A stretch of DNA of 64,000 nt from Bacteroidota bacterium. Its GTDB lineage: Bacteria > Bacteroidota > Bacteroidia > Bacteroidales > ML635J-15. This document shows, one piece after another, positions 8,212-24,300 of this stretch (positions are counted from its first letter, which is position 1; every line of letters starts with the position of its first letter). The notes beneath the pieces were generated by a model. The model saw nothing but the letters and a program-made list of their open reading frames with translations, searched no databases and was not told the DNA's origin. The stretch is taken from assembly GCA_051747965.1 (NCBI GenBank), contig JBNJGS010000001.1:40311-104310 (forward strand). The letters run 5' to 3'. A program made the translations under genes and the position numbers.

Positions 8212-9117
8212 TTAAAAAATCAGTTCATTTATTGCATGTATATCTCCAGAGATATTTTCATTTATGCTATCGATATTATCAGATGTCCGGATTCTCTTCT
8301 GAAAAGCCAGGGTATAGATTTCTCCATGATTGAGCGTTTTGTCTTCATCCAGAGATAAAAGATACAGATGCGGCCGATTCTCTTCCCGGCTAACCACAGC
8401 CATTGCCCGGCAATTATTTTCCATGACACTTACAGCATAGGTGCCGTCCGGAGGGATGAGTTTCTCTTCTTCCTCCATTTCAACTGCATGAAAACCCTGC
8501 TTTTTTTTCAAGGGACTGATGTCAGCCTTACCTGTTTTACCCATGACAAGATAAAAATGATCCAGATATGCATTGGCCCGTTGTATATGACCCTCTGCCA
8601 GGGCTTTTCGGATACGTGTTGAACTCACAGCTTCATTTTCGATATCCTGCATGGGTATTTCTTCCACCATAAAATTCTTCGTTTTACTCAATTCATGCAA
8701 ATAATCAAAATTCCCTTCGCGATTATGACCAAAGTAATGATTGAACCCAACGATAATAATTTTTGCATTCAGTTTTCCAAGAAGTATATCGTTGACAAAT
8801 TGTTGTGATGTTGTTTGTGAAAAAGACAGGGTAAACGGGATAATAAAGAGATGATCGATTCCTGTGTTTTCCAGGAGATATTTTTTTTCCCGTTGGGTAT
8901 TGATAAGTTTCAGATCAGCCATTTTATCAGGGAAAAGCACTTTACGCGGATGCGGGTGAAATGTAATCAGAACAGATTCGCCTCTGACCTGTCTGGCTAG
9001 TTGATTCAGTCTGTTCAGAATTGTTTTGTGTCCAATATGAACTCCGTCAAAGGTACCGGTGGTAACAACCGGATTTTTTATTGTGCCAATATCTTCAAAA
9101 TCTGTATGTATCTTCAT
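8212..9117 (-). CDS. ribF: RibF-family FAD synthetase; the C-terminal riboflavin-kinase-like module is divergent
   Basis: 301 aa. The N-terminal FMN adenylyltransferase motifs are intact (GTFDGVHIGH, SSTRIR). The C-terminal module aligns to RFK (GTYAV), but GFHAVE replaces the GFPTAN motif. Confidence 0.8.
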   Translation of the reverse strand: MKIHTDFEDIGTIKNPVVTTGTFDGVHIGHKTILNRLNQLARQVRGESVLITFHPHPRKVLFPDKMADLKLINTQREKKYLLENTGIDHLFIIPFTLSFSQTTSQQFVNDILLGKLNAKIIIVGFNHYFGHNREGNFDYLHELSKTKNFMVEEIPMQDIENEAVSSTRIRKALAEGHIQRANAYLDHFYLVMGKTGKADISPLKKKQGFHAVEMEEEEKLIPPDGTYAVSVMENNCRAMAVVSREENRPHLYLLSLDEDKTLNHGEIYTLAFQKRIRTSDNIDSINENISGDIHAINELIF

Positions 9118-9145: not shown

Positions 9146-9766
9146 CTAATCATTGTGATTGACAAAATAAGCAACTTTTTCCATGCTGGTCACCATATCA
9201 TAATCCTCCACATAAATATGGTCGGGGATGCTAAGCGGAACAGATGTAAAATTCAGTATTCCCTTGATATTGTTTACCACGAGCTGATCGGCTACTTCCT
9301 GTGCATGTTCCGGTGACAATGTCATGATGGCAATGGAAATATCAAGTTCTTTGATCTTTTCTCCAAGTTGGTTGATATGATAGCACCGCACATTGGAGAT
9401 TACCCTGTTGATCTTTTGTTCATCCACATCAAAAGCAGCGGCAATATCAAGTTTGGTGCGTTTGCCGTTAAAGTAGCTGGTGATGGCTTTGCCGAGGTTT
9501 CCCATTCCTATGATTGCTGTATTGATCTTTTTGTTGCCGTCAAGGATTTCGCCAATGCGCTGAATCAGGTCTTCAATAACATAACCTTTTCGTTGAGTTC
9601 CTGAATATCCGATAAGCATGATGTCCCGCCTTACCTGTACCGGTGTAAGGTGCAACTGACTGGCAAGTTCATGCGAGTAAATATGTTCCTTGCCCTTGTC
9701 CAGGTTGCTATAGAGAATGCGTCTGTACTGGCTTAGCCTTTCAACGGATTTTGGTGGTAAATTCAT
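9146..9766 (-). CDS. rex: redox-sensing transcriptional repressor Rex
   Basis: 206 aa. It has an N-terminal winged helix (RLSQYRRIL...SHELASQL) followed by the Rossmann motif IIGMGNLGKAI and ILNFT, which is the Rex family layout. Confidence 0.9.
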   Translation of the reverse strand: MNLPPKSVERLSQYRRILYSNLDKGKEHIYSHELASQLHLTPVQVRRDIMLIGYSGTQRKGYVIEDLIQRIGEILDGNKKINTAIIGMGNLGKAITSYFNGKRTKLDIAAAFDVDEQKINRVISNVRCYHINQLGEKIKELDISIAIMTLSPEHAQEVADQLVVNNIKGILNFTSVPLSIPDHIYVEDYDMVTSMEKVAYFVNHND

Positions 9767-9777
9767 GGTTTCTCAAT

Positions 9778-10896
9778 TTATTTTTTAAAAATAATATAAA
9801 AAGTTGAGCCTTCATCCTTTTTACTTTCCAAATGTATGCTGGCTTTATAGTTGTCAATGATTCTTTTTACAATTGAAAGGCCCAGGCCACTGCCGGAAAT
9901 CTTTTTTGTTTCTTCATTCCGGATACGAACAAACTCCCTGAAAAGCCTTGCCTGGTCATCCTCAGAAATGCCAATTCCTGTATCTTTAACAACAATATGA
10001 ATTTCATGTTCGGTCTGGTAAAGAGAAATGTTCACATTTCCTTCTTTTTTGTTGTATTTGATGGCATTGGAAATAAGGTTATTGAGTACGATTTCCATTT
10101 CTTCCCGGTCGGCGTTCATTTCCAGCTTTTCAGGAAGATCTTTTTGAATGCTGATATCTTTTTGGATGGCATATGGCTGCATGGTAGCGATGGCATCCTC
10201 AACCACTTCAGGGAGATTGATTTTCTCAATGCTTCTTTGTTTTTTCCCTGATTCAAGTTTTGTCAGGTCGAGCAGATCCATGATAAGATTTCGCATATTA
10301 TCCATTCTGTCGAGTGATCGGTTGACCATCTGCATATAATCATTGATGTCATTGCCTGCCTCTTTGTTTTTCATCATCTGCAGATATCCTTCCACTGCAT
10401 TGATTGGTGCTTTCAGCTCATGCGACAGAAGCGACAGAAACTGATAGCGGATTTGCTTTCCCTCTTTGTTCATGCGGGCAGTCATTCGTTTGAGAAACAA
10501 TTGCTTGGCCACATTTTCCAGGGAAGCCCTCAGCTCCTGTGGGGTAAATGGTTTTGGGACAAAGTCGCTGGCCCCTTGCCTGGTGGCTTTTACTGCCACT
10601 TCAAGTGAAGCATAAGATGTAATCATCACCACATAGGATTCAATTTGCTGCTTATTGATGTAATTGAGTACATCCAGGCCCTGAATTCCGGGCAACTTAT
10701 TGTCCAGCAGCACAATATCCGGTGTTTCTTTCTTCAGGATTTCCAGGGCTTCCTCCCCGGTAGCCGCTTCATTCACAGTAAATCCAAACACATCATCCAT
10801 GAAAGGATAATCCAGGGTAAATTTTCTGAGAACACGCTTTACTCCAGCGCGAATCCCGGGTTCATCATCCACAACCAATATTGTAAATTTTTCCAT
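9778..10896 (-). CDS. hybrid receiver-histidine kinase (N-terminal REC, then HisKA + HATPase)
   Basis: 372 aa. The REC domain shows ILVVDDEPGIR...IVLLDNKLPG...VPKPF. The H-box is LSLLSHELKAPINAV, and the G-boxes are DTGIGIS and GSGLGLSIV. Confidence 0.85.
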   Translation of the reverse strand: MEKFTILVVDDEPGIRAGVKRVLRKFTLDYPFMDDVFGFTVNEAATGEEALEILKKETPDIVLLDNKLPGIQGLDVLNYINKQQIESYVVMITSYASLEVAVKATRQGASDFVPKPFTPQELRASLENVAKQLFLKRMTARMNKEGKQIRYQFLSLLSHELKAPINAVEGYLQMMKNKEAGNDINDYMQMVNRSLDRMDNMRNLIMDLLDLTKLESGKKQRSIEKINLPEVVEDAIATMQPYAIQKDISIQKDLPEKLEMNADREEMEIVLNNLISNAIKYNKKEGNVNISLYQTEHEIHIVVKDTGIGISEDDQARLFREFVRIRNEETKKISGSGLGLSIVKRIIDNYKASIHLESKKDEGSTFYIIFKK

Positions 10897-10898
10897 AA

Positions 10899-11291
10899 CT
10901 ATGTAAGGAGTTTGTTGATGACTGAATACAATCTTTCTGTTTCTATACCTTTTTCAAGGTAGGCATCTGCCTTTATCCAGGCCTGATCCTGTTGTTCCTG
11001 AAGTCTGAATGAAATGCCTGTTTCTGCCGCCACGTTGGTAGCAATAACAACAGGGACATCGGGATACCTTGATTTACAACGAAAAGCCAGAACAAATCCG
11101 CTGTCATCGTTTTCCATCATAAGGTCAAAAATGGCCAGATCCGGCCTGACCTGCTTCAGGATGTTCTCGGCTTCTTTCTGACTCTCAGCCGTGATAAGCT
11201 CAAATCCGCTTTTTTCAAGTTTGAATGATGTCTGAAACAAATAATCAGTATCATCATCAGCCAGCAGAATTATTTTCTTTGTTTTCTCCAT
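10899..11291 (-). CDS. stand-alone response-regulator receiver protein (no output domain)
   Basis: 130 aa. It has ILLADDDTD and the phospho-acceptor context LAIFDLMM. No DNA-binding or enzymatic domain follows. Confidence 0.85.
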   Translation of the reverse strand: MEKTKKIILLADDDTDYLFQTSFKLEKSGFELITAESQKEAENILKQVRPDLAIFDLMMENDDSGFVLAFRCKSRYPDVPVVIATNVAAETGISFRLQEQQDQAWIKADAYLEKGIETERLYSVINKLLT

Positions 11292-11296
11292 ATTTT

Positions 11297-13294
11297 TTAT
11301 CCCTCAACTTTTGGATGCCTGGGCAAATCAACTGTAAATGTGGTTCCTGTTTCACCATCGGCGGGATTATCATTGCTTACCAGGGTGATTTTGCCCTTGT
11401 GCATCTTAATAATTCCATAAGTGGTAGGCAAACCCAGACCGGTTCCTTTGCCAATGCCTTTGGTGGTGAAAAAGGGGGTGAATATTTTTTCCCTGATTTC
11501 TTCCGGGATGCCACTGCCTTCATCTGTTATTTCAATTCGTATATTTTCTTCATCACCATTGATGTTAATGTGTATATCACCACCCTCCGGCATAGCTTCC
11601 GTTCCGTTTTTAATCAGATTTGTCAGTGCTTGTATCATCTGTTCTTCATCCAGATAAACCTGAGTATTGTTCAGGTGGTTATGAATTTTTATTCTGACCT
11701 TGTCAGGTATGATAAATGACCTGATGCTTTTCTGTATCAGATCGGTAATGCTTACATTGCTTTGCCTGACCTGATTTTTTCTGGCAAAATTCAGCAGATT
11801 GCCAACAATTTTTTTGCAGCGGGAGGCCTGATCTGCGATCATTTTATAATCTTCATACGCCTCGCTGTTTTCATCAACCTCATCCAGCAGCATATTGCTG
11901 TACATAATAACCACACCCAGGGGATTATTGAGCTCATGGGCTATGCCTGCTGACAACTGACCAAGATGGGCAAGTTTTTCCGACTGTTTGAGCGCCTGTT
12001 GAATGGAAGACAATTTTTCATTTTTTTGATGCAACTCATCAATGGACCGATGCATTTTTTCTATGGTGTAGGGCAAACACATGTCAATTTCTGCAAGGCC
12101 GCGCAAGACCGCAACGGCATGTTCCTCGCAACTGTCGTAACCACAAGCCTGACAATTGAGTCTGTCTTCCGGTTCATTCTTGCCCATTGCCGACCACAAT
12201 GCATATATTTCTTCATTATCGGGCATTTTCACCCGCTGATCATCCGGTGTAAACGTTCTGGTTAGGTCCAGATCCTTAAATCTGTGTATGTATTTCTCCC
12301 AGCTTTTTTGGTCAAGATTGTTCATTTTTTCCTTGACATAGCGGGTAATATGTGCCCTGTTTTCATAGCGCTTTCCGTTTCTGGACATTCCGGGTCCCAT
12401 AATGCAGCCTTCACAGCAAAGCAGCTCCAGGTGATGATCGTTAATCAGGCCATAATCAAATTCCTGTATGGCATCCTTAAAATTCACCCTGCCTTCTGCC
12501 ACCACAATATTTCCTTTAAACAGATTTTCGTGGACATTAATGGTTTGGATGATGCCTCTGCTAATGGGAAAAATGGAACCGCGTCCACCAAAAGGCGGGT
12601 CAAATTCGCTGGCTTTGGTATTTTCAGGTTTGATTTCCTGTGCTTCCAGCATTTCCCTGAATTCTGAAAAAGTCAGGACAGCATCCACTTCATCAGACTC
12701 TTCTTTTTTTGCAACACAGGGACCGATAAAAACAAGTTTGTATTTTTCTCCGTACATTTCTTTCAGCGCTCTTGCCAGAGCCATAACAGGAGACACTACA
12801 GGAGCAAGATTTTCTGTCAGATGGGGATGATATTTTTTGATAAAGTTGACAATTGAGGGACAGTCAGAACTGATGAATCGTCTCTCATCATCAGAAGTCA
12901 GCAAATCTTTGTAACGCAAAGCAACCAGATCTGCACCAAATGAAACCTCGGTAACCATGTCAAACCCCAGTTTTCTTGTCATACCGACAAATTTCCGGTA
13001 ATCGTTGATTTCAGGAAAATCGGCAGGAAAACTTGGTGCCACCATAGCAATAACCGGTTCATGTCGTATGAGCAATTTTTCAGCCATGCTTTCAGATTTC
13101 CTGAAATTTTTGGCTTTTCTGGTACACACACGGATGCAGTTTCCGCAGCCAATGCATCTGTCCTGTATCACTTCTGCCTGACCATTGATGATACGTATTG
13201 CTTTGGCAGGACATTCCCTGACACAGGTGTAACACATTTTACATCTGTCTTTGATGGTGTATACCAGGGGCTTATCTGTCAACAATTCACTCAT
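11297..13294 (-). CDS. HydS-type sensory [FeFe]-hydrogenase-like protein fused to a histidine kinase
   Basis: 665 aa. It starts with two [4Fe-4S] motifs ([23 protein letters not shown]). The H-domain has L1 SSDCPS, L2 GPCVAKKEE and L3 [13 protein letters not shown]. Next comes an exact Cx2Cx4Cx16C motif ([26 protein letters not shown]), then a coiled coil, then HisKA ([12 protein letters not shown]) and HATPase (GTGLGLP). Confidence 0.85.
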
Positions 13295-14970
13295 AGTACA
13301 TTAAATTTATGTTTCAGGTCAGGCTTATCATCCCGTTGAATGTAAGCATTGGCAAAAGGATTGGCCTGCGGTGATTTGGCCTGGGTATTGTCGTCTGATT
13401 TGTAAAGGCTTTTGATCAGCATTTTGGTACGGTTTTCCGTTCTCTCAGAAAGGGGTTGTCCGCCCCCGCCCATGCATCCCAGACTGCAGTTTGACAACTC
13501 CAGGATATCGCAATTGGCTCTGCCCCTGAGAACGTCAAGAATATGCTTTTCAATATTGTGTATACCACTGACAACCTTTGTTTTATATGTTTTTGATCCG
13601 ATTTTGAAGCTGGCTGTTTTTTCCTGCTTCATTACCCGAAGGTCCGGGATTTTATGACGTATCGGCTCTTTGCCCGTTTTCAGGAAATGCATATGTCTGA
13701 AAATCGCCTCGCTCAGTCCTCCGGGCACATGATAGAGACTACCTGAAGCACTGGAGACATGGTAAGGCTGATCAAACCGTTCTTCGTCAATATTGTGGAG
13801 ATCAACACCGGACAATTTCAGCAGGCGCAACAACTCCCGTGTTGTCAGCACTGCATCCACATCCGGGATACCCCTTGTCATATTGTCTGTTCTGGTTGCC
13901 TCTGCTTTTCCGGCTGTACAGGGTGTTACTGAAACGGTAAATGTATCTTCCTGTCTCAATTCTTCTTTTTCGGCATAATCTGTTTTGATAAGCTTGCCCA
14001 GAATTTGCTGCGGGGTCTTCACCGGATTGATAAAAGACAAGGCTTCAGGCATAAATTGCTCCAGGTAATTCACAATGGAGGGGCATGAGCTAATGATGAC
14101 CGGAGACTTTCCGGTTTCGCTGATGTGCCGGGCAGTTTCCATAACAAAAACATCACCTGCGAAGGCAGAATCAAAGACAAAATCAAACCCTGCCTGTTTC
14201 AATCCTGAGATCACAAGGGGAGTGATGTCTGTTCCGGGCTTGAATCCGGCAGCTTCTGCAAGAGTATAACCAATGGCCGGTGCAAGCTGAGCATATATTG
14301 TAATGTTCTTATTGTTGATGGCATCCATCACCGGTGTGATAGCAGATTTCTCTGTAAGTGCACCACTGGGGCAAACAAGTATGCATTGTCCACATGAAAT
14401 GCAGGTGGAGTAATTCAATCCTTTTCCCAGGGCAGTATCAATCCTGGTATTGATGCCTCTGCCTGAAAAATCTATGGATGATGCCTGCACACGCTCATCG
14501 CAAACGCGTATACATCTGCCGCAGAGGATACACTTTGCATTGTCCATGACTATGGCCGGACTGGATTTGTCTTTGTATTGTGATTTTTTGGTTCCGAAAA
14601 ATCGTCTGTCCATAATATTGAGCTCCACAGCAAGGTTCTGTAATTCACAATGCTGATTGTTTTCACAATAAAGACAATCGTCGGGATGATTGGCAAGTAA
14701 AAGTTCCACAATGGTTTTGCGCGCATTGATAACCCGCGGGGAATGGGTAAAGACCTCCATACCTTCTTCAACGGGCTGTGAACAGGAGGGCACCAATTCA
14801 TCACGACCGGAAATTTCGACCACACAAAGTCTGCATGAACCTGTGGGTGTAAATTCATTCAGGTGACAGAGGGTTGGCACTCTGATACCATGTCTTTTCA
14901 GAGCGACGAGAATGGTTTCGCCCTTTTTTCCCTCGAGTTGTTTATTATTTACGTTGAAAAGAATGCTCAT
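13291..14970 (-). CDS. hydA: [FeFe]-hydrogenase large subunit, HydA-like (M3 architecture) with a non-canonical H-cluster pocket
   Basis: 559 aa. It carries a [2Fe-2S] set (C35, C46, C49, C63), a His-ligated cluster (HPDDCLYCENNQHC) and two [4Fe-4S] motifs (CILCGRCIRVC, CISCGQCILVCP). The H-domain has L1 IISSCPS, L2 TPCTAGKAE and L3 ELSNCSLGCMGGGGQP. Confidence 0.85.
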   Translation of the reverse strand: MSILFNVNNKQLEGKKGETILVALKRHGIRVPTLCHLNEFTPTGSCRLCVVEISGRDELVPSCSQPVEEGMEVFTHSPRVINARKTIVELLLANHPDDCLYCENNQHCELQNLAVELNIMDRRFFGTKKSQYKDKSSPAIVMDNAKCILCGRCIRVCDERVQASSIDFSGRGINTRIDTALGKGLNYSTCISCGQCILVCPSGALTEKSAITPVMDAINNKNITIYAQLAPAIGYTLAEAAGFKPGTDITPLVISGLKQAGFDFVFDSAFAGDVFVMETARHISETGKSPVIISSCPSIVNYLEQFMPEALSFINPVKTPQQILGKLIKTDYAEKEELRQEDTFTVSVTPCTAGKAEATRTDNMTRGIPDVDAVLTTRELLRLLKLSGVDLHNIDEERFDQPYHVSSASGSLYHVPGGLSEAIFRHMHFLKTGKEPIRHKIPDLRVMKQEKTASFKIGSKTYKTKVVSGIHNIEKHILDVLRGRANCDILELSNCSLGCMGGGGQPLSERTENRTKMLIKSLYKSDDNTQAKSPQANPFANAYIQRDDKPDLKHKFNVL

Positions 14971-14975
14971 GGTAT

Positions 14976-16907
14976 CTAATCTGTCTTGATCGCGTTAAAC
15001 TTACAATTATCATAACACAGTCCGCAGCCTATGCACTTTTCCTTAACAATAAAGTACGGATGTCTGGCCACCCCGATGATAGCATCAGCAGGGCACTTGC
15101 GTGCACAGATGGTGCAACCGGTACATAAATCCACATCTATGGTGTAGGATTTGAGTTCCTTGCATACGCCTGCTTTGCATTTGCGGTCAAAGATATGTTC
15201 CTCATATTCATTTCGAAAATGTTCAACGGTGCTCAAAACCGTATTTGCTGCATTTTGCCCCAGGCCGCAGAGGGAAGTTTCTTTCATAACTTTGGCAAGG
15301 CTTTCAAGCTGCATAACACCTTTGAACCGTTCCAGTGATTTGTGTCCGGTTTCATCATACGGCTTGCGGGTAATCCGGGTCAGGATATCAAGCATACGCT
15401 GGGAGCCTTCTCTGCAGGGAATACATTTTCCACAGGATTCCTGCTGGATAAAACGCATAAAATACCTGGCAAGGCTGATGATACAATTGCTTTCATCAAG
15501 CACAAGAAAACTTCCGCTTCCCATTTTAAGGCCGGCTTTTTCCATGGCAGCAAAATCCATGGGGATATCCAAATTGCTGGTATTTATCACACCACCTGAT
15601 GGTCCGCCAATATGGACAGCTTTTAATTCTTTATCACCGGGAACACCGCCACAGGTTTGGATTATATCACGCACTTTGGTACCCATTTCAACTTCCAGGA
15701 CGCCGGTTTTGGCAATTTTCCCGCTCACGGACAGTAGTTTTGTACCCGGACTGTTTTCTGTACCGGTTTTTTTGAATTTTTCTCCCCCCTGCCTTATAAT
15801 GTATGGCACATTGGCCAGTGTTTCCAGGTTGTTAACTACAGTGGGTTTACCAAACAGCCCTCTTTCCGCCGGATATGGTGGTTTGGGCTGAGGCATTCCC
15901 CTTTTGCCTTCCAGGCTGGCAATCAAAGCTGTTTCTTCACCACACACATGAGCCCCCGGACCTTCTTTAATGTCAATATACAACTCAAAACCACTGTTGA
16001 AAATATTATCTCCAAGCAACTCATACTCATAGGCCTGCTTCAGTGCGGTTTTCAGACGCTGTATGGCAAGTTTATACTGATTCCGGATGTAAATGATTGC
16101 CCGGTTTGCCTGTATGGCATAAGCGGCAATTGCCACACCCTCAATTACCTGGTGTGGATCACCTTCTACCAGGTGTCTGTCCACAAAAGCCCCCGGATCA
16201 CTCTCATCAGCATTACAGATGATATATCTGGAGGCTTCAGATTGTTCAAGTGCTGCCAGCCACTTGTCGCCGGTGAGATAGGCAGATCCGCTGCGCCCTT
16301 TAAGTCCAGCAGACTTAACAATCCTGCATACTTCCTCTGATGTATGGGCTGTAATTGCTTTAGCAAATGCCCGGTATCCTTCAGAAATGATGTATTCATC
16401 AATATTATCAGGAGATATTATTCCCGTTCGCCGGGTGAGATGTTTTTTCTGTGTATTGAAAAAGCTGAGATTGTTCAGGTATGGCACATCATCCCATTCC
16501 GCAAGATTAGCCTGGGGATATTGTCCCAGATTGCCGTAGTCCGGCAGGAAATTGTTTGTTACCGCATCCATCAATTCTGCCACCTTCTCTTCAGTAATTC
16601 TTGCAAAACTGATACGGGTTCTGCCGGGAATCTGCACATCAACAATGGGCTCAGCAGAACACAACCCGATGCAACCTACTTCAATAACTTCTGCATCCAG
16701 ATTTTCTTCCTTAATATGCTCAATTATCTTATTCTTTGTTTTGTCTGCACCCGCGATAACACCACAGCTTCCCATACCAACATAAATCACCGTTTTCCGG
16801 ACAAAATCCCGGCGTATGGTGGCAATGTTTCTATCCAGCACAGCATTGCCTTTCGGGGGATTGGGCCCCATAAGAAGAAGCGGGAGATGTTCTTTAATCA
16901 AATTCAT
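14976..16907 (-). CDS. hydB: NuoF-like flavoprotein subunit of trimeric hydrogenase (HydB-like)
   Basis: 643 aa. An N-terminal thioredoxin-like region has Cys (GMGSCG, VGCIGLCSAEP). The NuoF core shows CNADESDPGAF, GAHVCGEETALIASLEG, KPPYPAERGLFGKPTVVNNLET and ESCGKCIPCREG. The C-terminus has two ferredoxin motifs (CTGCTICARKCP, CIGCGLCYDNC). Confidence 0.85.
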   Translation of the reverse strand: MNLIKEHLPLLLMGPNPPKGNAVLDRNIATIRRDFVRKTVIYVGMGSCGVIAGADKTKNKIIEHIKEENLDAEVIEVGCIGLCSAEPIVDVQIPGRTRISFARITEEKVAELMDAVTNNFLPDYGNLGQYPQANLAEWDDVPYLNNLSFFNTQKKHLTRRTGIISPDNIDEYIISEGYRAFAKAITAHTSEEVCRIVKSAGLKGRSGSAYLTGDKWLAALEQSEASRYIICNADESDPGAFVDRHLVEGDPHQVIEGVAIAAYAIQANRAIIYIRNQYKLAIQRLKTALKQAYEYELLGDNIFNSGFELYIDIKEGPGAHVCGEETALIASLEGKRGMPQPKPPYPAERGLFGKPTVVNNLETLANVPYIIRQGGEKFKKTGTENSPGTKLLSVSGKIAKTGVLEVEMGTKVRDIIQTCGGVPGDKELKAVHIGGPSGGVINTSNLDIPMDFAAMEKAGLKMGSGSFLVLDESNCIISLARYFMRFIQQESCGKCIPCREGSQRMLDILTRITRKPYDETGHKSLERFKGVMQLESLAKVMKETSLCGLGQNAANTVLSTVEHFRNEYEEHIFDRKCKAGVCKELKSYTIDVDLCTGCTICARKCPADAIIGVARHPYFIVKEKCIGCGLCYDNCKFNAIKTD

Positions 16908-16916
16908 AGGCTGTGC

Positions 16917-17375
16917 TTATTTGTTGTTTAATGTCTTGATTATCTGGTCAAGTTTTTGTTTGCTCAGGCGTGTATGGTAAGTATCATTGACCTGAATAAC
17001 AGGCGCCAGCGCACAGGCTCCCAGGCAACTCACCTCTTCAATGCTGATTTTTCCGTTTTTGGATACGCCGTTATCCATGATATTCAATTTGGAAATGAGC
17101 GTATCACGCAGGCTGTCCGCTCCCATCACATGACAGGCTGAACCAGCACACATGCGGATATGAACAGGGGCATTTTCACGAAACCTGAACTGATTATAAA
17201 AAGTAGCAATGCCATATATCCGGCTTCCCGGAATACTGAGAGCCTTTGTTATTTCCCTGATGTGCTCTTCAGTGATGTATCCCTGCTCATTTTGCACCTC
17301 CTGTAATATCGGAATCAGGTCCTTTTGCGCCTTATCGGGATACTTATAAATAATATGTTTTATGCCTGCTGCCAT
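16917..17375 (-). CDS. hydC: NuoE-like [2Fe-2S] subunit of trimeric hydrogenase (HydC-like)
   Basis: NuoE pattern: YPDKAQKDLIPILQEVQNEQGYI, GIATFYNQF, MCAGSACHVMG and VSCLGACALAP. The track ORF begins at TTG 17414. I prefer ATG 17375 (MAAGIKHII...), because the extra 13 codons fall in AT-rich DNA that carries palindromes and a promoter-like box. Confidence 0.8.
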   Translation of the reverse strand: MAAGIKHIIYKYPDKAQKDLIPILQEVQNEQGYITEEHIREITKALSIPGSRIYGIATFYNQFRFRENAPVHIRMCAGSACHVMGADSLRDTLISKLNIMDNGVSKNGKISIEEVSCLGACALAPVIQVNDTYHTRLSKQKLDQIIKTLNNK

Positions 17376-17403: not shown

Positions 17404-17415
17404 TTTGTTAACAAA
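17404..17415. promoter_or_regulatory. perfect 12-bp palindrome TTTGTTAACAAA (fused Rex-like half sites)
   Basis: Read directly from the sequence. It consists of overlapping TTGTTAA/TTAACAA half-site sequences with no spacer. Confidence 0.35.
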
Positions 17416-17421
17416 TAAACA

Positions 17422-17439
17422 CTGTTAAGATATTAACAA
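17422..17439. promoter_or_regulatory. candidate Rex operator
   Basis: CTGTTAAGATATTAACAA matches the TTGTTAAnnnnTTAACAA Rex box at 17 of 18 defined-plus-spacer positions, with perfect inverted arms TGTTAA/TTAACA. It lies in the hydC / sigma-factor divergent intergenic region. Confidence 0.55.
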
Positions 17440-17563: not shown

Positions 17564-18061
17564 ATGACAAAACTATCAACACAGATTACAGAACATTCAG
17601 AACATTTAAAGTATTATGCTTTAAGTTTAACCAACGACAGTGAGACGGCCAATGACTTAATGCAGGAAACAATGTTTAAGGCATTGAAAAATGAGGATCG
17701 GTATGTTCACGATAAGAATCTGCGCTCATGGTTGTTCACAATAATGAAAAATACCTTCATCAATCAGTACCGAAGGGAGAAATCCAGGCAAAAAATGGTG
17801 GCAGAAGTAAAGGATGTAAGTTCATATGCTTCAGCGAAAGTAGAAAATGAGACAGGTCTTGATTTGTATGTCATGAGATCTGATATTCACAAAGCATTAT
17901 TGAAGTTGAATTCAAAATACAGAGTACCTTTCATTCTGTTTTACAAGGGTTTTAAATACACAGAAATTGCCAAAAGACTTAATCTGCCACTCGGAACAAT
18001 CAAAAGCCGCATCTATTTTGCCCGCAAAATCCTGATGGAAGAACTCTCAGGACTGATCTAG
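17564..18061 (+). CDS. ECF-type RNA polymerase sigma-70 factor
   Basis: 165 aa. Region 2 is LMQETMFKALKN...SWLFTIMKNTFINQYRR. Region 4 is FKYTEIAKRLNLPLGTIKSRIYFARKIL. No adjacent anti-sigma gene is present. Confidence 0.85.
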   Translation: MTKLSTQITEHSEHLKYYALSLTNDSETANDLMQETMFKALKNEDRYVHDKNLRSWLFTIMKNTFINQYRREKSRQKMVAEVKDVSSYASAKVENETGLDLYVMRSDIHKALLKLNSKYRVPFILFYKGFKYTEIAKRLNLPLGTIKSRIYFARKILMEELSGLI

Positions 18062-18066
18062 CCCAA

Positions 18067-20202
18067 TTATTCCTCATAAATGATATCGGAGTAATCCTCA
18101 AGTTCGCCGATTATTCTGAATTCTGTCCGCCGGTTTTTGGCACGGCCTTCTTCGTTGTCGGTACCATCGGGATTGGTATTGGGTGCTATTGGATCTTTTT
18201 CGCCGTAACCTTTGGCCTCTAGCTGATCCTCCGGGATACCTCTGTCTATCAGGTGCTCCACTACCGATTCTGCCCGTTTTTGTGAGAGTTCCAGATTAAA
18301 CTCATCACTACCGACACTGTCTGTATGAGAGCTTATCTCAACCACGATGCTCGGGTTTTCCTGCAGCAGATCGAAAATGGTATTATCAATGACATTTTTG
18401 GCCTCATCAGTGAGCTTATGGTCATTGTATTCATAATAGACATTTTTCAGTATAAGCGGTTCCGTGGGTATCGTATTTACGATAATGGCATCCATATGCA
18501 GGGTATCATCTTTGGTAATGTCCCGGGTTGTGAGAGCAAATTCTTTTTCATCACGGTTAAAATCCTTGACTTTCAACACATAATCAATACCTTGCTCCAG
18601 ATTGAACCAAAAACGGCCCTGATTTGTGGAATCTGTTTTGATAAAACTTTCCTTTCCGGTATCCGGATCTTTCATGAATAATGACACCGGGTACTTATGC
18701 AGGCGTTCCATGGATGATGTGTCATCCATGTGATCTAAATGATCAATTGTGAGATTTTGCTCATATTCTTCCCGGATACTGTTATAAAAGGACAAATCCG
18801 TGATTCCGTAGATTTGTCCGGTCAGCCAGATACGGATGTAATCACTGTCAATGTATTGATAAATATCATCACAGCAGGTTTCATGCCGCAGGCTTTGGCC
18901 ACCGGCACGGTTGGATACAAAATACCCGTAATACCCTTCCTCTGCTTTAGAGAAATACAGTTCATCCACTTCAGAATTTACCGGTTTCCCGATATTTTCG
19001 GGCTCACTAAACTGCCGTCCGCTGCCCCGGGTTTTAAAGACATCAAGTCCTCCATAATTTGGATAAGCATCAGAACTAAAGTACATCGTCTTGCTGTTTA
19101 CATGGTAGAAAGGTGTCATCTCATCACCAGCCGTATTGATTTTCCGGCCACAATTTCGCGGCGGCATAAAAGCTTCCCGTCTTGGATCCCAGTAGGTGTA
19201 CCAGATATCCATGCCACCTTGTCCGCCTTCGGGTCGGTCAGAAACAAAATACAGCATATCGGTATTACGACGTGACACTCCCACAGCCGGCATACTTGAA
19301 GTATATCCCGGCATGTTGATTTCATTATTGAGCAATTCGGGTTCCTGCCATTCGTTGTTTTTCTTTTCTGTCCTGTATATTTGACAAATCATCTTATTAC
19401 CGATTCCCTGATGTTTTGAGCAACGGGTAAAATAAAAGCGCTTATGATCGGGTGAAAAAGCCCCATTTCCTGTATTTGCCTCCTGTGTATTGATAAGATC
19501 ACCACCAAACTCTTCTCCGGTTTTCCAGGATTTGCCGTCTTTATATGCCATATAGAAACGACGTTTGGGAATGCTGTCGGTTGCAGGATCGAAATATTGC
19601 ATTTCATCCATGGGTAAAGAAGCATAAATCATAAGATCCTCCTCGAGAGGTATGGGATTAAAATCAATGTGTTTATGGTTGATGCCATGCATATTGTTCA
19701 CCACATAATTGGTATGAATACTGTCGGCAAGTGCCAGCTCGCATCCCTCTATCTCTGATTGCAAACGGTTTTTATAATAAACACTTTTTGATTTGCTTAC
19801 ATCTCTGCTGTATCGTCTGAAAATATTGAATTCTTTGAGTGCCTCCTCATATTTTCCCTGCATTTTCAGGCAAACAGCATACTTAAACTGTGCTTCAGGA
19901 AATTTTCTTCTTTTGGCACGGAAGGCCTTGTGATAATACTTTTCGGCAGCAGGATAATTTCTTTCTTTAAAATACAGTTCCGCAAGCGTATAAGACATAT
20001 TTGCATCATCCGGTTCTTCCTCAAGATAAGCAGCCAGATAATCAATGGCTGTAAATATATCACCTGATTTCATGGCCTGCAGGCCGTATCTCATAATCTG
20101 CCGGCTATTCATGTCTTCCATCGCATCCTGCCCGAAAGCCGGAGTGATGACAAATCCAAAAAAGACAAAAGCGGGAATCGTAATCAGTTGAAAATGCTTC
20201 AT
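18067..20202 (-). CDS. OmpA-family outer membrane protein with TPR and TolB-like beta-propeller repeats (PorE-like)
   Basis: 711 aa. It has a signal peptide, N-terminal TPR-like helices and PD40-like repeats (FSPDHKRFYFTR, MLYFVSDRPEGGQGGMDIW, TMYFSSD). The C-terminal OmpA_C region reads ISSHTDSVGSDEFNLELSQKRAESV...NRRTEFRI. Confidence 0.75.
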   Translation of the reverse strand: MKHFQLITIPAFVFFGFVITPAFGQDAMEDMNSRQIMRYGLQAMKSGDIFTAIDYLAAYLEEEPDDANMSYTLAELYFKERNYPAAEKYYHKAFRAKRRKFPEAQFKYAVCLKMQGKYEEALKEFNIFRRYSRDVSKSKSVYYKNRLQSEIEGCELALADSIHTNYVVNNMHGINHKHIDFNPIPLEEDLMIYASLPMDEMQYFDPATDSIPKRRFYMAYKDGKSWKTGEEFGGDLINTQEANTGNGAFSPDHKRFYFTRCSKHQGIGNKMICQIYRTEKKNNEWQEPELLNNEINMPGYTSSMPAVGVSRRNTDMLYFVSDRPEGGQGGMDIWYTYWDPRREAFMPPRNCGRKINTAGDEMTPFYHVNSKTMYFSSDAYPNYGGLDVFKTRGSGRQFSEPENIGKPVNSEVDELYFSKAEEGYYGYFVSNRAGGQSLRHETCCDDIYQYIDSDYIRIWLTGQIYGITDLSFYNSIREEYEQNLTIDHLDHMDDTSSMERLHKYPVSLFMKDPDTGKESFIKTDSTNQGRFWFNLEQGIDYVLKVKDFNRDEKEFALTTRDITKDDTLHMDAIIVNTIPTEPLILKNVYYEYNDHKLTDEAKNVIDNTIFDLLQENPSIVVEISSHTDSVGSDEFNLELSQKRAESVVEHLIDRGIPEDQLEAKGYGEKDPIAPNTNPDGTDNEEGRAKNRRTEFRIIGELEDYSDIIYEE

Positions 20203-20205
20203 AGT

Positions 20206-21225
20206 TTAATATCTGTCACAAGGAATTGCAAAGCGTTCAATATCTTTCACAAAATTGGTATAAACAATGGATAACTCAAAAGCTCCTTTAAAATTACTGG
20301 CTTGTCTCAGCCCGGAAATATTGACATCATAACTGATGCCAACATCAAAACCCATGACACCCACCCCGGCTTTAAATATCAGAGCATCCGTGGAATGGAG
20401 TTGAGTTCTGACACCTCCGCCGGCATATATTTTTTCAAGCAGGTCTTCCAGGGGAAACTCATATCCGGCTACAGCTCCGAAAAGAAAATTGCTTGCTTTG
20501 GTTGTAAAACCGGTGTACAAATCGGGCCGGGCAAACCATTGCTCTGTCAGCTCAATATCTGCATAAGCACTGACTGCATACCGCAGGGGAAGTTTTGCAT
20601 CATCATCCCGCAGGAAGCTTAGCGAAGGATTGTTGATGTGATACAGACTCAGACCGGCAACAGGTGTGATTTTTCCGTAGGTTCCGGACCAGGCCACACC
20701 CAGGTTGATATCGGGATAATTGACATTCTCATCCCATGTATCAAGGTAGGATGGCATTTCCGAATCAAACAATCCGGTATTCGGATTGTATTGTCCGGGA
20801 AAAGTAAGCGGATCATGATCAAAAGTATTGACTACATAGCCTGCCTGCAATCCACCCGAGAGATCATGACCAGCTATTTGGGTATGCCATGACAGGGAAA
20901 GATATACCTTATTGGCTGTCAGTGCCGCAGCACCCGACTGATCGTTTACAAAATAAACACCTGCCCCAAGAGTTCCTGCAACAAAGTTAAATGGCTTGTC
21001 AAATCCGGCAGATATGGTTTTAAACGGAATTCCTACAGAACTCCACTGGTTCCGGTAATTGTTACTGAATCGCCAATTGCCTTCAAACATCCCTGTATAA
21101 GCCGGGTTTACATGCAACGGACTCTTACCAAACTGCGAAAAATGAATATCCTGAGCAGAAAGATCAGACACCTTTAACACAGATAAAAGAACCAGAATGG
21201 TTATGAAAATTTGGTTTTTTTGCAT
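20206..21225 (-). CDS. T9SS membrane protein PorP/SprF family
   Basis: 339 aa. A signal peptide is followed by AQDIHFSQFGKSPLHVNPAYTG...YRNQWSSVG, the characteristic PorP/SprF N-terminal signature. Confidence 0.85.
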   Translation of the reverse strand: MQKNQIFITILVLLSVLKVSDLSAQDIHFSQFGKSPLHVNPAYTGMFEGNWRFSNNYRNQWSSVGIPFKTISAGFDKPFNFVAGTLGAGVYFVNDQSGAAALTANKVYLSLSWHTQIAGHDLSGGLQAGYVVNTFDHDPLTFPGQYNPNTGLFDSEMPSYLDTWDENVNYPDINLGVAWSGTYGKITPVAGLSLYHINNPSLSFLRDDDAKLPLRYAVSAYADIELTEQWFARPDLYTGFTTKASNFLFGAVAGYEFPLEDLLEKIYAGGGVRTQLHSTDALIFKAGVGVMGFDVGISYDVNISGLRQASNFKGAFELSIVYTNFVKDIERFAIPCDRY

Positions 21226-21306
21226 TTTGCTCTTTTATTTATCCCTCAAATATAGTATTTTTGTTAGTGAATCCAACGAAACCAATACAATTTAAGGGAA
21301 AATTTT

Positions 21307-24300
21307 ATGCCATTACTAAAAATTATTTCTGCCATTGTTGCCTTTGCTATCATGTCCTTAAGTATTGCAAACGCACAGCCTGTGGCCGATTTTGAAATCG
21401 GGGAAGGCGAAGAGTCTGTATGTGTCAACGAAAATATTCATTTTACCAATCTCAGCGATACCTCTGCATGTTCCGGTGATGTTTCCTGGGTATGGGATTT
21501 TGGAGACGGAGCCACTTCTACGGTCTACAACCCGGTGAGAAATTATGATGCACCAGGCACTTATGATGTGGTTCTTACCATAACCTGTGATGGGTTTAGT
21601 GATGCAGAGCTCATGAGTATTTCCGTGCTGCCCACACCGGATGCAGGATTTCAGGATGTGAGCTTTACAGGATGCGCACCACATACGGTAAATTTCGTGA
21701 ATACCACAACACAAATAGGCGGTGGAAACATTGACGGATATACCTGGAATTTCGGCGATGGCACAAGCAGTGCAGATGAAAATCCTGAACATACCTATAC
21801 TCAGGCAGGTACTTATACCATTACACTTGAGGCCACCAATGAAAACGGCTGCACATCATTTGCCAGTCAGGAGAATGCCATTACCCTGTCTGCCGTTCCT
21901 GAACTTAGTCTGTCTGCCAACCCCCAGTCACATTGCCAGACTCCTGTGAATATTGATTTTACTTCAAACATCAATGTTACATCAGGGTTGGATTACGACA
22001 TTGACTGGGATTTCGGGGATGGCGGAAATGCCACAATTGAAAATCCAAGCCATGAATATACCAGCAATGGAGATTATGATATCAGCCTGACTGTCACAGA
22101 TGAATATGGTTGCACCAACACCATTGACTCCATTGATTATGTACATGTGCATCCGGTAACACCGGATTACACAATTCTGGATGATGACTCTCAGGAAATA
22201 ACCAACAACATCACCTGCATTAACACAAACACGTATTTTGTATGCAACAATGCAGGCTATGATGTGGAATGGGATTTTGGCGAGGGCAGCACATCGTCAA
22301 ACAGTACGGCAGCCTTTTCTTTTTCTACTTCCGGCTCACATAACATCACCATGACGGTAGACCCCGGAGGTGTCTGTGAAGCCTCAAGCGTGATCAATCT
22401 TACTGTTGAAGATCCAGAGCCCACTTTTATTGTTGATGAGGATTTCAGCTGTACAGCTCCTTTTACAGTCCAGTTTACCAGCGATGCTTCAACAACAATC
22501 GATGAATACGACTGGTTGTTTGGCGATGGCTTTGACGACGCTCAGGAAAATCCATCGCATACTTATAACGAAACAGGAACATTTACCCCGGTACTTGAGG
22601 TTGTTTCCTCCAATGGTTGCGAAGCACAGTATTCAGGCCCGGAAATCAATATCAGCTCTCCTTCCGCTTCATTTTCCGTGGATACGACAGAGGGCTGCCT
22701 TGGCATCATATTCAACACAAGCTACGACAGCATTACCCATCCCGACGAAATCACAGATTTTACATGGGATTTCTACAGCAATATAGAATCACTGTCAGAT
22801 CCGTTTTCCTCCGGCACCGAGGAGTCTCATGCATATACAGATACAGGGGAATATATCATCAGCCTTACTGTAACAGATACTTCCGGATGTATTTCTGATT
22901 TTGAACTTGATGTGCAGGTTGGTGAACATCACATGCCATTATTTGATACCCTGGCATACCCGCACTTGATTTGTCCCCAGGATTCTCTGGACTTCTATAG
23001 TCTCTCCGAAGATCCAGATTATATTGATGACTATGAGTGGCTTATGGGAGACACCAATTCCTGGCAATGGGGTACTTTTGAAGAACAGGACCTGGAGGAT
23101 TTCATGTTTGAAGAAGATACCGGGTATGTGCAGGTAGTCCATGTAGTAAATCATAACGGATGCAGAGATTCACTATACATGCCGGACTTCTTTTATGTGC
23201 GGGGGCCGGTAATTCATAATATTGAGATTACCCATGACTGTGAGCAGGGCACTGAATACCTGTTTACACTTGATGCAGTACTGGCCAGTGAATGGGATTG
23301 GTTTGTATATGATGATGCAGGAAACCAAGAGTCTCAGCATTTATCCACAACCGATACCACGCTTATATGTAATTTTACACAAAACGGCGAATACTGGGTT
23401 CATGCTCTTGCCAGAAACGACACAACAGGTTGCGATTATATTGATTCGGTGAAAGTGAATGTGATACAACCGGTGGCAAATTTCGATCTGTCTCCTGCTA
23501 ACATTTGTGCAGGAGAACCGGGCTATAGTTTTACTGAAAGTGGCAGTGAACATGCCGATAGCATTTACTGGGATTTTGGTGATGGTGAAAATTCCGGTTG
23601 GTTACCCCCCTCAGAAGACACCGGTGAATTTGATGCTGTCACCCATGCATACGATACGGTAGGGGATATTGAAGTATGGCTGCATGTACAGGATGAAAAC
23701 GGCTGCGTGGATTCTGTGATGCGCGTTTTACACCTTATGGGTCCGATGATAACAATAGATTCAGATTATCCACTGGAAGGCTGCACTCCTTTCAATCTTT
23801 TGATCGAAGGCGAGGTTGAGGCAGATGATGCCATCAGCTACATGAGTGTTGAGGTGGCAGGTAATGGCACAGATGAACCGGCGGTAAATGGAACAGGTCT
23901 GCTGCCGTTCTCCTCGGAATTCAACATCAACGAAGCCGGCGTATATGATGTGGAAATCACCGCTGTATCCGGAGGATGCACCAATACCAACACATATCCT
24001 GATTTTCTGACACTCACTTCACTGAATGCTGATTTTACGGCCGCCTCGGTAAATGATAATGATCGTGAATTATGTGCAGGTGATGCTGTTGAATTCACCC
24101 CGGACACATTATATGGTCCGGATTATGATTATGAATGGGATTTTGGTGACGGCTCTCCTGCCAGCAGTGAACTCTCACCGGTTCACACCTATACAAGCCC
24201 CGGAAGTTATGATGTAAGTCTGACTGTTTCAGGGAATGGCTGCACCCGGGATGAAATCAAAACAGCCTATATTGAAGTAGAGGAAGCTGATGCCGGCTTT

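Follow-up and report, generated by a model that had tools for sequence, protein, structure and literature searches.

A sensory-type [FeFe]-hydrogenase domain fused to a histidine kinase in a Bacteroidota hydABC operon: a putative H2-reporting kinase with aspartate at the proton-relay position

What is reported, and by which route, when the active-site domain of an [FeFe]-hydrogenase runs directly into a histidine kinase? The question is raised by a 64,000-nt stretch of DNA from a Bacteroidota bacterium (contig JBNJGS010000001.1; this whole stretch is called the window below), which encodes on its minus strand such a protein of 665 amino acids (aa), referred to here as HydS-HK. An earlier note, made from the letters of the window, took it for an H2-binding sensor whose redox state gates autophosphorylation directly. 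The analysis described below makes it fairly probable that HydS-HK acts as input kinase in a phosphorelay, which reports H2 (or the H2-linked redox poise) and is co-expressed with a HydABC-type hydrogenase. The gene and the parts of its product are the following (window coordinates):

11297..13294, minus strand: hydS-HK, sensory-type [FeFe]-hydrogenase domain fused to a histidine kinase, 665 aa (open reading frame, Pfam, >120 full-length homologous clusters)
13115..13261, minus strand: N-terminal 2x[4Fe-4S] ferredoxin domain, aa 12-60, with Cys18/21/24/28 and Cys47/50/53/57 (Pfam Fer4 dicluster)
12392..13057, minus strand: H-domain, aa 80-301 (PF02906, Fe_hyd_lg_C, E 3.6e-47)
12854..12871, minus strand: L1 motif SSDCPS, aa 142-147 (Asp144 codon GAC at 12865-12863)
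12698..12724, minus strand: L2 motif GPCVAKKEE, aa 191-199 (sequence and structure-based alignment)
12389..12427, minus strand: L3 motif, aa 290-302; His288, immediately upstream, is a clade signature
12077..12154, minus strand: C-terminal Cx2Cx4Cx16C [4Fe-4S] motif, Cys381/384/389/406, aa 381-406 (PF04060 'FeS' at aa 379-408)
11966..12076, minus strand: signalling helix, aa 407-443, between Fe-S motif and kinase dimerisation domain (AlphaFold2 helices, fixed spacing)
11774..11965, minus strand: HisKA/DHp, aa 444-507 (Pfam, E 6e-14), phospho-accepting His453 in AHELNNPL, codon 11936-11938
11318..11650, minus strand: HATPase_c, aa 549-659 (Pfam, E 2e-23)

The open reading frame, the Pfam matches, the motif positions and the AlphaFold2 model all agree, well beyond what chance would give, with the domain order and motifs that had been read from the sequence, the lack of a PAS domain included: Pfam finds none in HydS-HK, the same search does detect PAS in a PAS-type relative (L068), and aa 302-443 are helical in the model, with no PAS-like β-sheet. 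HydS-HK thus has the N-terminal 2x[4Fe-4S] domain, the H-domain and the C-terminal Cx2Cx4Cx16C motif that define group C (HydS, M2f) proteins, but not the PAS domain that follows the Fe-S motif in that definition. The motif is indeed common to Thermotoga HydS (PMC8163306), and in HydS-HK it lies in acidic surroundings (D377, E390, E391, E402, D404). The kinase part has everything expected of class I (HisKA) enzymes: the H box, a DHp helical hairpin, the N box (N559/N563), the G1 box (D591-x-G593-x-G595), F608 and the G2 box (G617-x-G619-x-G621). Its sequence matches ZraS in the PDB (9jfj, E 9e-30), and ZraS is also matched by the C-terminal part of the model in the Foldseek comparison, in which CbA5H, DdH and CpI are matched over ~410-470 columns (the H-domain and its flanks). 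The model, built from a 79-sequence alignment, has a mean predicted local distance difference test score (pLDDT) of 81.6, with the H-domain above 90; a helix (407-434) starts right after the last Fe-S Cys and is followed by a low-confidence hinge, a helix with His453 (441-472) and another helix (478-505), a layout which in the model is that of a signalling helix entering the DHp hairpin. NCBIfam has no dedicated model for such a protein, and HydS-HK reaches none of its cut-offs (FeFe_hydrog_A: 98 bits, cut-off 406; AtoS model: 181 bits, also below cut-off).

Can the H-domain hold an H-cluster? No HydS-type structure was found in the PDB copy searched, and the residues were mapped by phmmer alignment to PDB sequences, all of group A structures. 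Among the CpI entries the C299D variant, 6GLZ, scores highest, owing to the match of its TSDCPGW to SSDCPS of HydS-HK. The alignment pairs D144 with CpI C299 (the position assigned to it before, with the GAC codon likewise confirmed), C145 with C300, G191 with M353, C193 with C355, K196 with K358 and E199 with E361; after a one-residue deletion in L3 it pairs L292 with M497, C294 with C499 and C297 with C503, so that L3 reads Cys294-x2-Cys297 against the canonical C-x3-C. An incomplete set of cluster cysteines had been named as a result that would speak against the sensor; all four (C145, C193, C294, C297) align to CpI ligands. The anchors of the cyanide ligands are kept as well: K196 (K358), A86-P87-S88 (A230-P231-S232) and S168-P169 (S323-P324), the last of these in the loop that reads S319-S320-A-K-S323-P324-Q325 in CpI, where the Ser319 position is Ala164. 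The group A proton path is not kept (E279->Tyr128, S319->Ala164, E282->Leu131, R286->Asp135), and with Asp at C299, the rest of the path lost, M353->G191 and M497->L292, HydS-HK is no prototypical group A enzyme.

In the alignment of 79 homologues (55-83% identity, mean column identity 64%), D144, C145, C193, K196, K197, E199, C294 and C297 are invariant, and so are the 8 ferredoxin cysteines, C381/384/389/406 and the kinase residues H453, N559/N563, D591/G593/G595, F608 and G617/G619/G621; Cys293 is only ~90% conserved, as against the invariant Cys294 and Cys297. HydS-HK is therefore under selection in two respects, for an H-domain that binds its cofactors and for a working kinase. Judged by sequence, the residues for an H-cluster, two N-terminal and one C-terminal [4Fe-4S] clusters and a class-I kinase are all present.

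The connection between the Fe-S motif and the kinase turned out to be locked to the heptad. The distance from Cys406 to His453 (window 11936-12079) is 47 aa in 120/120 close homologues, and from the last Fe-S Cys to the phospho-His it is 47 or 40 aa in all 47 kinase-fused loci. Directly fused representatives with less than 50% identity have 33, 40, 47, 54 or 68 aa, each of which is 5 modulo 7, and 25/28 share this phase (binomial p 1.6e-18, with no phylogenetic correction); the longer spacings (141-396) probably hold inserted domains. Length changes in whole heptads are to be expected of a continuous coiled coil with register-sensitive output, with which the helices of the AlphaFold2 model agree, and the locked spacing argues for continuous coiled-coil coupling between the Fe-S domain and the kinase.

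The other peculiar trait is the aspartate. That Cys-to-Asp is the substitution at this position which keeps activity, as stated in the earlier note, is confirmed by the literature: C299D in CpI and C169D in CrHydA1 keep 30-80% of the H2-evolution activity, while C-to-A/S variants keep <1% (PMC6226526; PMC10055695), and the carboxylate of C299D forms a hydrogen bond of 2.7 Å with the azadithiolate (adt) amine (PMC6226526). The local motif of these engineered enzymes (6GLZ), (T/S)SDCP, is identical to that of HydS-HK. They retain Glu279, Ser319, Glu282 and Arg286, hence they are fast, whereas HydS-HK has Tyr, Ala, Leu and Asp; the kept activity is not simply transferable to HydS-HK because the other residues of the canonical path are missing.

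How is this aspartate distributed in nature? All 16 Asp-bearing proteins among the examined loci belong to Bacteroidota, while the 30 other kinase-fused orthologues have Thr (13), Ala (7), Ser (6), Pro (3) or Asn (1), and the PAS-type proteins of Firmicutes mostly Cys or Ala. In a neighbour-joining tree of aa 10-420 (a distance tree only, without curated references) the Asp proteins are monophyletic (16/16, none foreign) and lie within a set of forms with Thr, Ser or Ala, their sister being a Bacteroidales protein with Ser, and the kinase-fused clade groups with PAS-type and sigma-54-type sensors. An exhaustive, profile-free search with aa 1-420 against 1.84 billion representatives returned 927 clusters at E<=1e-30; in the best 150 of these 927, position 299 is A in 49, P in 25, T in 22, S in 19, C in 12, N in 7, H in 4 and D in 3, and two of the three Asp entries are fragments from the Bacteroidota clade. 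Asp is thus specific to one Bacteroidota clade and no general trait of kinase-fused sensors; the tree points to a single origin of Asp144 within that clade, where it is strictly maintained. A separate case is P0228 (574 aa; Fer4, H-domain and FeS by Pfam, no kinase), which has an independent SSDCPS together with an L3 of canonical length; at least two separate origins of Asp at position 299 follow from this.

Within the H-domain the Asp clade is marked against its kinase-fused sisters by D144 and H288, with G307 just C-terminal of the domain. H288 lies on the L3 strand, two residues before E290 and four before L292, and in a β-strand it would be expected to point to the side that the Met497 position faces. 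Asp144 is best read as tuning the proton chemistry of the H-cluster in a protein that otherwise has no proton exit route. The list of position 299 residues quoted from Chongdar 2023 gives Cys 17%, Ala 43%, Pro 10%, Ser 10% and 'etc.' (PMC10055695), and our literature search found no paper discussing a natural Asp there. The Asp144/His288 clade of Bacteroidota with its heptad-locked linker is an undescribed variant.

Or perhaps the kinase reads the reduction of ferredoxin or HydABC through its Fe-S clusters, with the H-domain as a scaffold or an incidental site of H+/H2 equilibration? The invariance of the three accessory [4Fe-4S] sites is in keeping with such a sensor of the redox pool, as are the co-location with Rex, another redox sensor (see below), the high variability of position 299 across sensory H-domains (A, P, T, S, C, N, H, D), and some 'C1' proteins of Hydrogenedentota that reportedly have a HATPase yet no recognisable H-cluster motifs. 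We nevertheless consider this explanation unlikely: the conservation of the four H-cluster cysteines, Lys196, Glu199, Ser168-Pro169 and Ala86-Pro87-Ser88 would be unexpected without a [2Fe] subcluster, and a strict Asp144 beside the adt position speaks for selection acting on the chemistry of the H-cluster.

The genomic surroundings place HydS-HK, the presumed H2-reporting kinase, in an operon hydC-hydB-hydA-hydS/HK followed by genes for a response regulator, a receiver-histidine kinase hybrid and Rex:

16917..17375, minus strand: hydC, NuoE-like [2Fe-2S] subunit, 152-aa call; a longer TTG open reading frame extends to 17414 (NCBIfam)
14976..16907, minus strand: hydB, NuoF-like flavin/NADH subunit (Pfam, NCBIfam)
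13291..14970, minus strand: hydA, 559-aa group A3-like hydrogenase subunit (Pfam; below NCBIfam cut-offs)
10899..11291, minus strand: single-domain response regulator, 130 aa, 5 nt downstream of hydS-HK (Pfam; conserved neighbour)
9778..10896, minus strand: receiver-HisKA-HATPase hybrid kinase, 372 aa (Pfam; conserved neighbour)
9146..9766, minus strand: rex, redox-sensing (NADH/NAD+) repressor (Pfam; NCBIfam 203.8 bits, cut-off 126)
17405..17439, no strand: two overlapping Rex-operator-like palindromes, the best being TTGTTAATATCTTAACAG (minus strand 17422-17439, 1 mismatch)

The intergenic gaps from hydC to rex are 9, 5, -4, 5, 2 and 11 nt, the stop of hydA overlapping the start of hydS-HK as ATGA (4 nt). 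The palindromes lie 30-64 nt upstream of hydC. Searching with a Rex-box consensus with an N4 spacer, TTGTTAATATCTTAACAG is the sole match with <=1 mismatch within the 64-kb window, and the overlapping copy has 2 mismatches; a consensus with an N6 spacer gave matches at chance level only and was dropped in favour of N4. In 1.19 Mb of related loci the boxes with <=1 mismatch are mostly located just upstream of hydC or rex (13 loci, several phyla), and most of the remaining ones occur between genes in three Firmicutes-type loci, either upstream of the hyd genes or a little past them. The operon, rex included, is probably autoregulated by Rex.

The window itself matches contig JAWOEK010000087.1 of the NCBI record GCA_046482795.1, and the same arrangement recurs widely. 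The full architecture is found in >120 clusters at 90% identity, with the nearest proteins from metagenome-assembled genomes of Bacteroidales, and the kinase fusion in 45 of the best 150 clusters mentioned above. In a scan of one genome per species, full-length orthologues occur, among the matches listed, in at least 15 phyla: Bacteroidota, Hydrogenedentota, Planctomycetota, Lentisphaerota, Calditrichota, Desulfobacterota, Verrucomicrobiota, Elusimicrobiota, Spirochaetota, Ignavibacteriota, Bdellovibrionota, Myxococcota, Marinimicrobia, Actinomycetota and Melainabacteria-like bacteria. BLAST labelling of the loci revealed a constant cluster of hydC, hydB, hydA, hydS-HK, a ~130-aa receiver and a ~375-aa receiver-HisKA-HATPase protein, conserved from Bacteroidota to Hydrogenedentota, Planctomycetota, Calditrichota, Elusimicrobiota, Myxococcota and others, with rex either after the cluster and followed by ribF (Bacteroidales) or before hydC (other phyla). 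Elsewhere the Fer4/H-domain/FeS module is fused to PAS (Firmicutes) or to sigma-54 AAA+ and HTH_8 domains (Desulfuromonas-like bacteria, Clostridia), so that it behaves as a portable module for input, as a sensor would lead one to expect. The sigma-54-fused sensors (L047:2108-4318, L049:126-2432, L050, L055), of which the Desulfuromonas-like ones have His at the Cys299 position, would be a one-component design from H2 to transcription.

These findings decide what remains of the earlier proposal. The signalling role is supported by the conserved cluster of HydABC, receivers and Rex, by the PAS and sigma-54 fusions and by the heptad linker. HydS-HK is not yet a minimal H2 biosensor, as the operon encodes no output regulator. 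Could the H-domain sense another ligand of the H-cluster, CO or O2, or be a decayed relic that signals nothing? H-clusters do bind CO and react with O2, and sensory-type enzymes show altered CO affinity (PMC8163306). The gene is, on the other hand, always linked to hydABC and rex, with no gene of CO or O2 metabolism in the neighbourhood, and decay is excluded by the very strong conservation across all domains with invariant catalytic boxes, so we regard this pair of explanations as highly improbable.

The fusion itself is widespread and already in print; neither rare nor singular, it is of a known but uncharacterised kind. HydDB defines group C1 as 'histidine kinase-linked (putative)' (PMC5037454), kinase-fused group C proteins have been described in Elusimicrobia lineage V beside a trimeric group A enzyme and Rex, with relatives in Caldithrix and Ignavibacterium (10.1101/765248), and a 2024 mSystems article names the protein BfuT, with a His-kinase domain, in 'sub-type V' Bfu clusters of Hydrogenedentota, Calditrichota and Bacteroidota, including three cultured Bacteroidota (PMC11406978). 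The C1 label named before for kinase-linked [FeFe]-hydrogenases agrees with HydDB, and a Petrimonas protein is reported as C1, but the kinase-fused orthologue of Caldithrix has been reported as C3 (PMC11406978); the sub-group of kinase-fused proteins is unsettled.

The partner encoded by the overlapping gene is itself unusual. HydA of the window retains the four ligand cysteines (motifs ISSCPS, PCTAGK, ELSNC) and has Ser at Cys299, Ile at Trp303, Thr at Met353, Gly at Lys358 and Ser at Met497, scoring 326 bits against the NCBIfam group A cut-off of 406. Such degeneracy is associated with Asp-type sensors: HydA has lost Cys299 in 9/15 Asp-type HydS loci versus 0/20 other loci (Fisher p = 7e-5) and Lys358 in 10/15 versus 1/20 (Fisher p = 1.5e-4), counts that are confined to one phylum and phylogenetically non-independent. 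Have the sensor and the enzyme, then, partly swapped their roles, HydS-HK having re-acquired, at the adt amine, a carboxylate competent to accept protons (Asp144, co-evolving with His288) while HydA lost Cys299 and Lys358? HydS-HK of the Asp clade ('BfuT') would in that case be an H2-activating subunit that docks to HydABC via its ferredoxin domain and supplies or complements the site whose key residues HydA has lost, and the kinase would report turnover. If so, it would be the main or the only H2-reactive site of a HydABC-HydS complex, with kinase output tied to turnover and not to passive H2 binding. In addition to the enriched losses, the 4-nt overlap of hydA and hydS, the treatment of the protein as the T subunit of Bfu (PMC11406978) and the pairing of Ser299 in HydA, a residue that leaves little activity in engineered enzymes, with the Asp that preserves it fit this picture. 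Yet the proton path beyond Asp144 is missing, six Asp-clade loci keep a canonical HydA, so that Asp is independent of HydA decay, the association has the limits just stated, and a complete, invariant kinase with two receiver partners is hard to reconcile with a purely catalytic subunit. A HydS-HK that acts as an extra catalytic subunit is therefore quite unlikely in our estimate; that it makes good the residues missing from HydA seems similarly improbable, and we rate the partial exchange of roles as a whole no higher. Outside Bacteroidota the group A3 HydA partners (L012-L047, Lachnospiraceae loci) mostly read TSCSPGW, which in a gap-free alignment has Cys in the 299 column and Ser in the 300 (ligand) column, a variant mentioned in PMC3787301 and PMC11406978.

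Comparison with known systems defines the reading of HydS-HK as an H2-reporting kinase more closely. It shares with TmHydS the N-terminal 2x[4Fe-4S] domain, all cluster ligands, the Met353->Gly replacement, the loss of the canonical proton path, the C-terminal Cx2Cx4Cx16C motif and the genomic link to a bifurcating HydABC. TmHydS, however, carries Ala131 where CpI has Cys299, and its Fe-S motif is followed by a PAS domain, while HydS-HK has Asp144, no PAS, a helix leading directly into the kinase and an L3 shorter by one residue. TamHydS (group D, M2e) resembles HydS-HK in lacking PAS and in having the C-terminal Fe-S motif in an acidic environment; its carboxylate near the adt amine, Glu252, has been proposed to start an alternative proton path and to position the amine. 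That path (E252/E289/S249/D265) consists of residues which the TamHydS paper calls exclusive to group D, and TamHydS differs from HydS-HK by Ala137 at position 299, the other location of the carboxylate and the lack of a fused kinase, its kinase-like ATPase being encoded by a separate neighbouring gene. TmHydS and TamHydS, slow enzymes both, stabilise reduced states, and these traits are consistent with sensing (PMC8163306, PMC10055695, PMC13104023). The closest counterparts are the proteins of Caldithrix abyssi, Ignavibacterium album and Elusimicrobia lineage V and BfuT, with the same architecture and the rex/hydCBA/hydS-HK arrangement (full-length orthologues, 41-52% identity); these have Thr, Ser, Ala, Pro or Asn at position 299 and a canonical HydA neighbour, so the Asp144/His288 signature and the degenerate HydA are, against them, specific to the Bacteroidota branch. 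ZraS, AtoS and NtrB-like kinases share the DHp and CA domains with HydS-HK, a kinship at the family level only, and are membrane or PAS sensors, unlike HydS-HK. Finally, in HoxBC-HoxJ a slow [NiFe] hydrogenase (HydDB group 2b) signals H2 to a histidine kinase governing hydrogenase expression (PMC5037454), but with an unrelated metal site and fold and with separate polypeptides connected via a PAS-like domain, which makes it an analogue and not a homologue.

On these grounds we propose that H2 would bind to the H-cluster of HydS-HK and be split heterolytically. Asp144, at the position from which the carboxylate hydrogen-bonds the adt amine in CpI C299D, may position the amine and take up the proton, and with no canonical exit path this would result in slow turnover and a long-lived reduced or protonated state, the electrons leaving via the N-terminal clusters. 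The change in the H-domain could be relayed through the C-terminal Fe-S domain, perhaps a rigid hub and not necessarily a redox switch, into the register-sensitive coiled coil and the DHp helix with His453, altering autophosphorylation; we infer this step from H-cluster to helix. The 130-aa receiver protein, the receiver of the 372-aa hybrid kinase, or both, would then take over the phosphate. The operon does not itself encode the final output, and Rex would add transcriptional control by NADH/NAD+.

Several observations weigh against this reading. The C-terminal cluster in TamHydS stays unreduced under 1 atm H2, and its H2-induced structural change is independent of that cluster (PMC13104023). 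Because of this, and as the motif of HydS-HK has likewise acidic surroundings, the redox gating of autophosphorylation put forward earlier is less likely than a conformational relay with the Fe-S domain as a rigid hub. At position 299 no replacement other than Asp goes together with fast catalysis, and the residue fits a catalytic as well as a sensory role. The sensory function of kinase-fused HydS is putative; our literature search, in line with the earlier note, found no biochemical work on any member, and the sensory role of group C as a whole, PAS-type HydS included, is still called putative (PMC8924675). Neither the operon nor the conserved cluster has a DNA-binding or other output domain recognised by Pfam, and the upstream receiver proteins in L004, L009 and L028, examined as possible outputs, have by Pfam a receiver domain only. 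Insertion of the H-cluster has to be assumed, as a partial scan of 10 window open reading frames (26.3-40.4 kb) recognised no HydE, HydF or HydG.

HydS-HK lends itself to the question whether the [FeFe]-hydrogenases of groups C and D, putative sensors, truly respond to H2 in that role, and by what route a signal would get out of the H-domain. With the H-domain and the Fe-S motif connected through one helix to the kinase, autophosphorylation with and without H2 would provide a direct quantitative read-out, offered by neither the PAS-type TmHydS nor the PAS-less TamHydS. The Bacteroidota clade is also a natural experiment at a second-sphere position, with Asp in place of the Ala of the characterised sensors and with the Thr/Ser/Ala/Pro orthologues as built-in controls; together with the heptad linker this makes it a good starting point for experiments. 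Being abundant in anaerobic Bacteroidales, the family probably matters for the way in which fermenters tune their H2 release.

Many Bacteroidales loci encode, mostly divergently and upstream of hydC, a second HydS-like paralogue of ~620-630 aa (L006:1366-3258(-), L008:1534-3411(-), L021:1741-3618(-), L033:1183-3042(-), L045, L054; in L003:14603-16456 it is downstream on the same strand). It comprises Fer4, the H-domain and the FeS motif with no output domain recognisable by Pfam, and has Asn (or Ala/Lys) at position 299 and His at position 288. The window has no such paralogue upstream of hydC; its spot is occupied by a gene for an extracytoplasmic function (ECF) sigma factor (17564-18061, plus strand). 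At the other end of the operon, 28 nt after rex, lies ribF, encoding a bifunctional riboflavin kinase/FAD synthetase (8212-9117, minus strand), found at the same place in the Bacteroidales loci L002, L003, L005-L008, L021, L025, L033 and L054, which may be linked to the flavin supply for HydB. Further away, the segment 28864-31891 (minus strand) encodes a 310-aa generic radical-SAM protein and, close to it, a tandem pair of MinD/ParA-type NTPases into which 4Fe-4S ferredoxin motifs are inserted, none of the three recognisable as HydE, HydF or HydG. The region 18067-25860 carries type IX secretion genes, which support a Bacteroidota origin of the window, with a 711-aa TPR/PD40/OmpA protein, PorP/SprF (339 aa) and a 1517-aa PKD-repeat/CHU_C protein.

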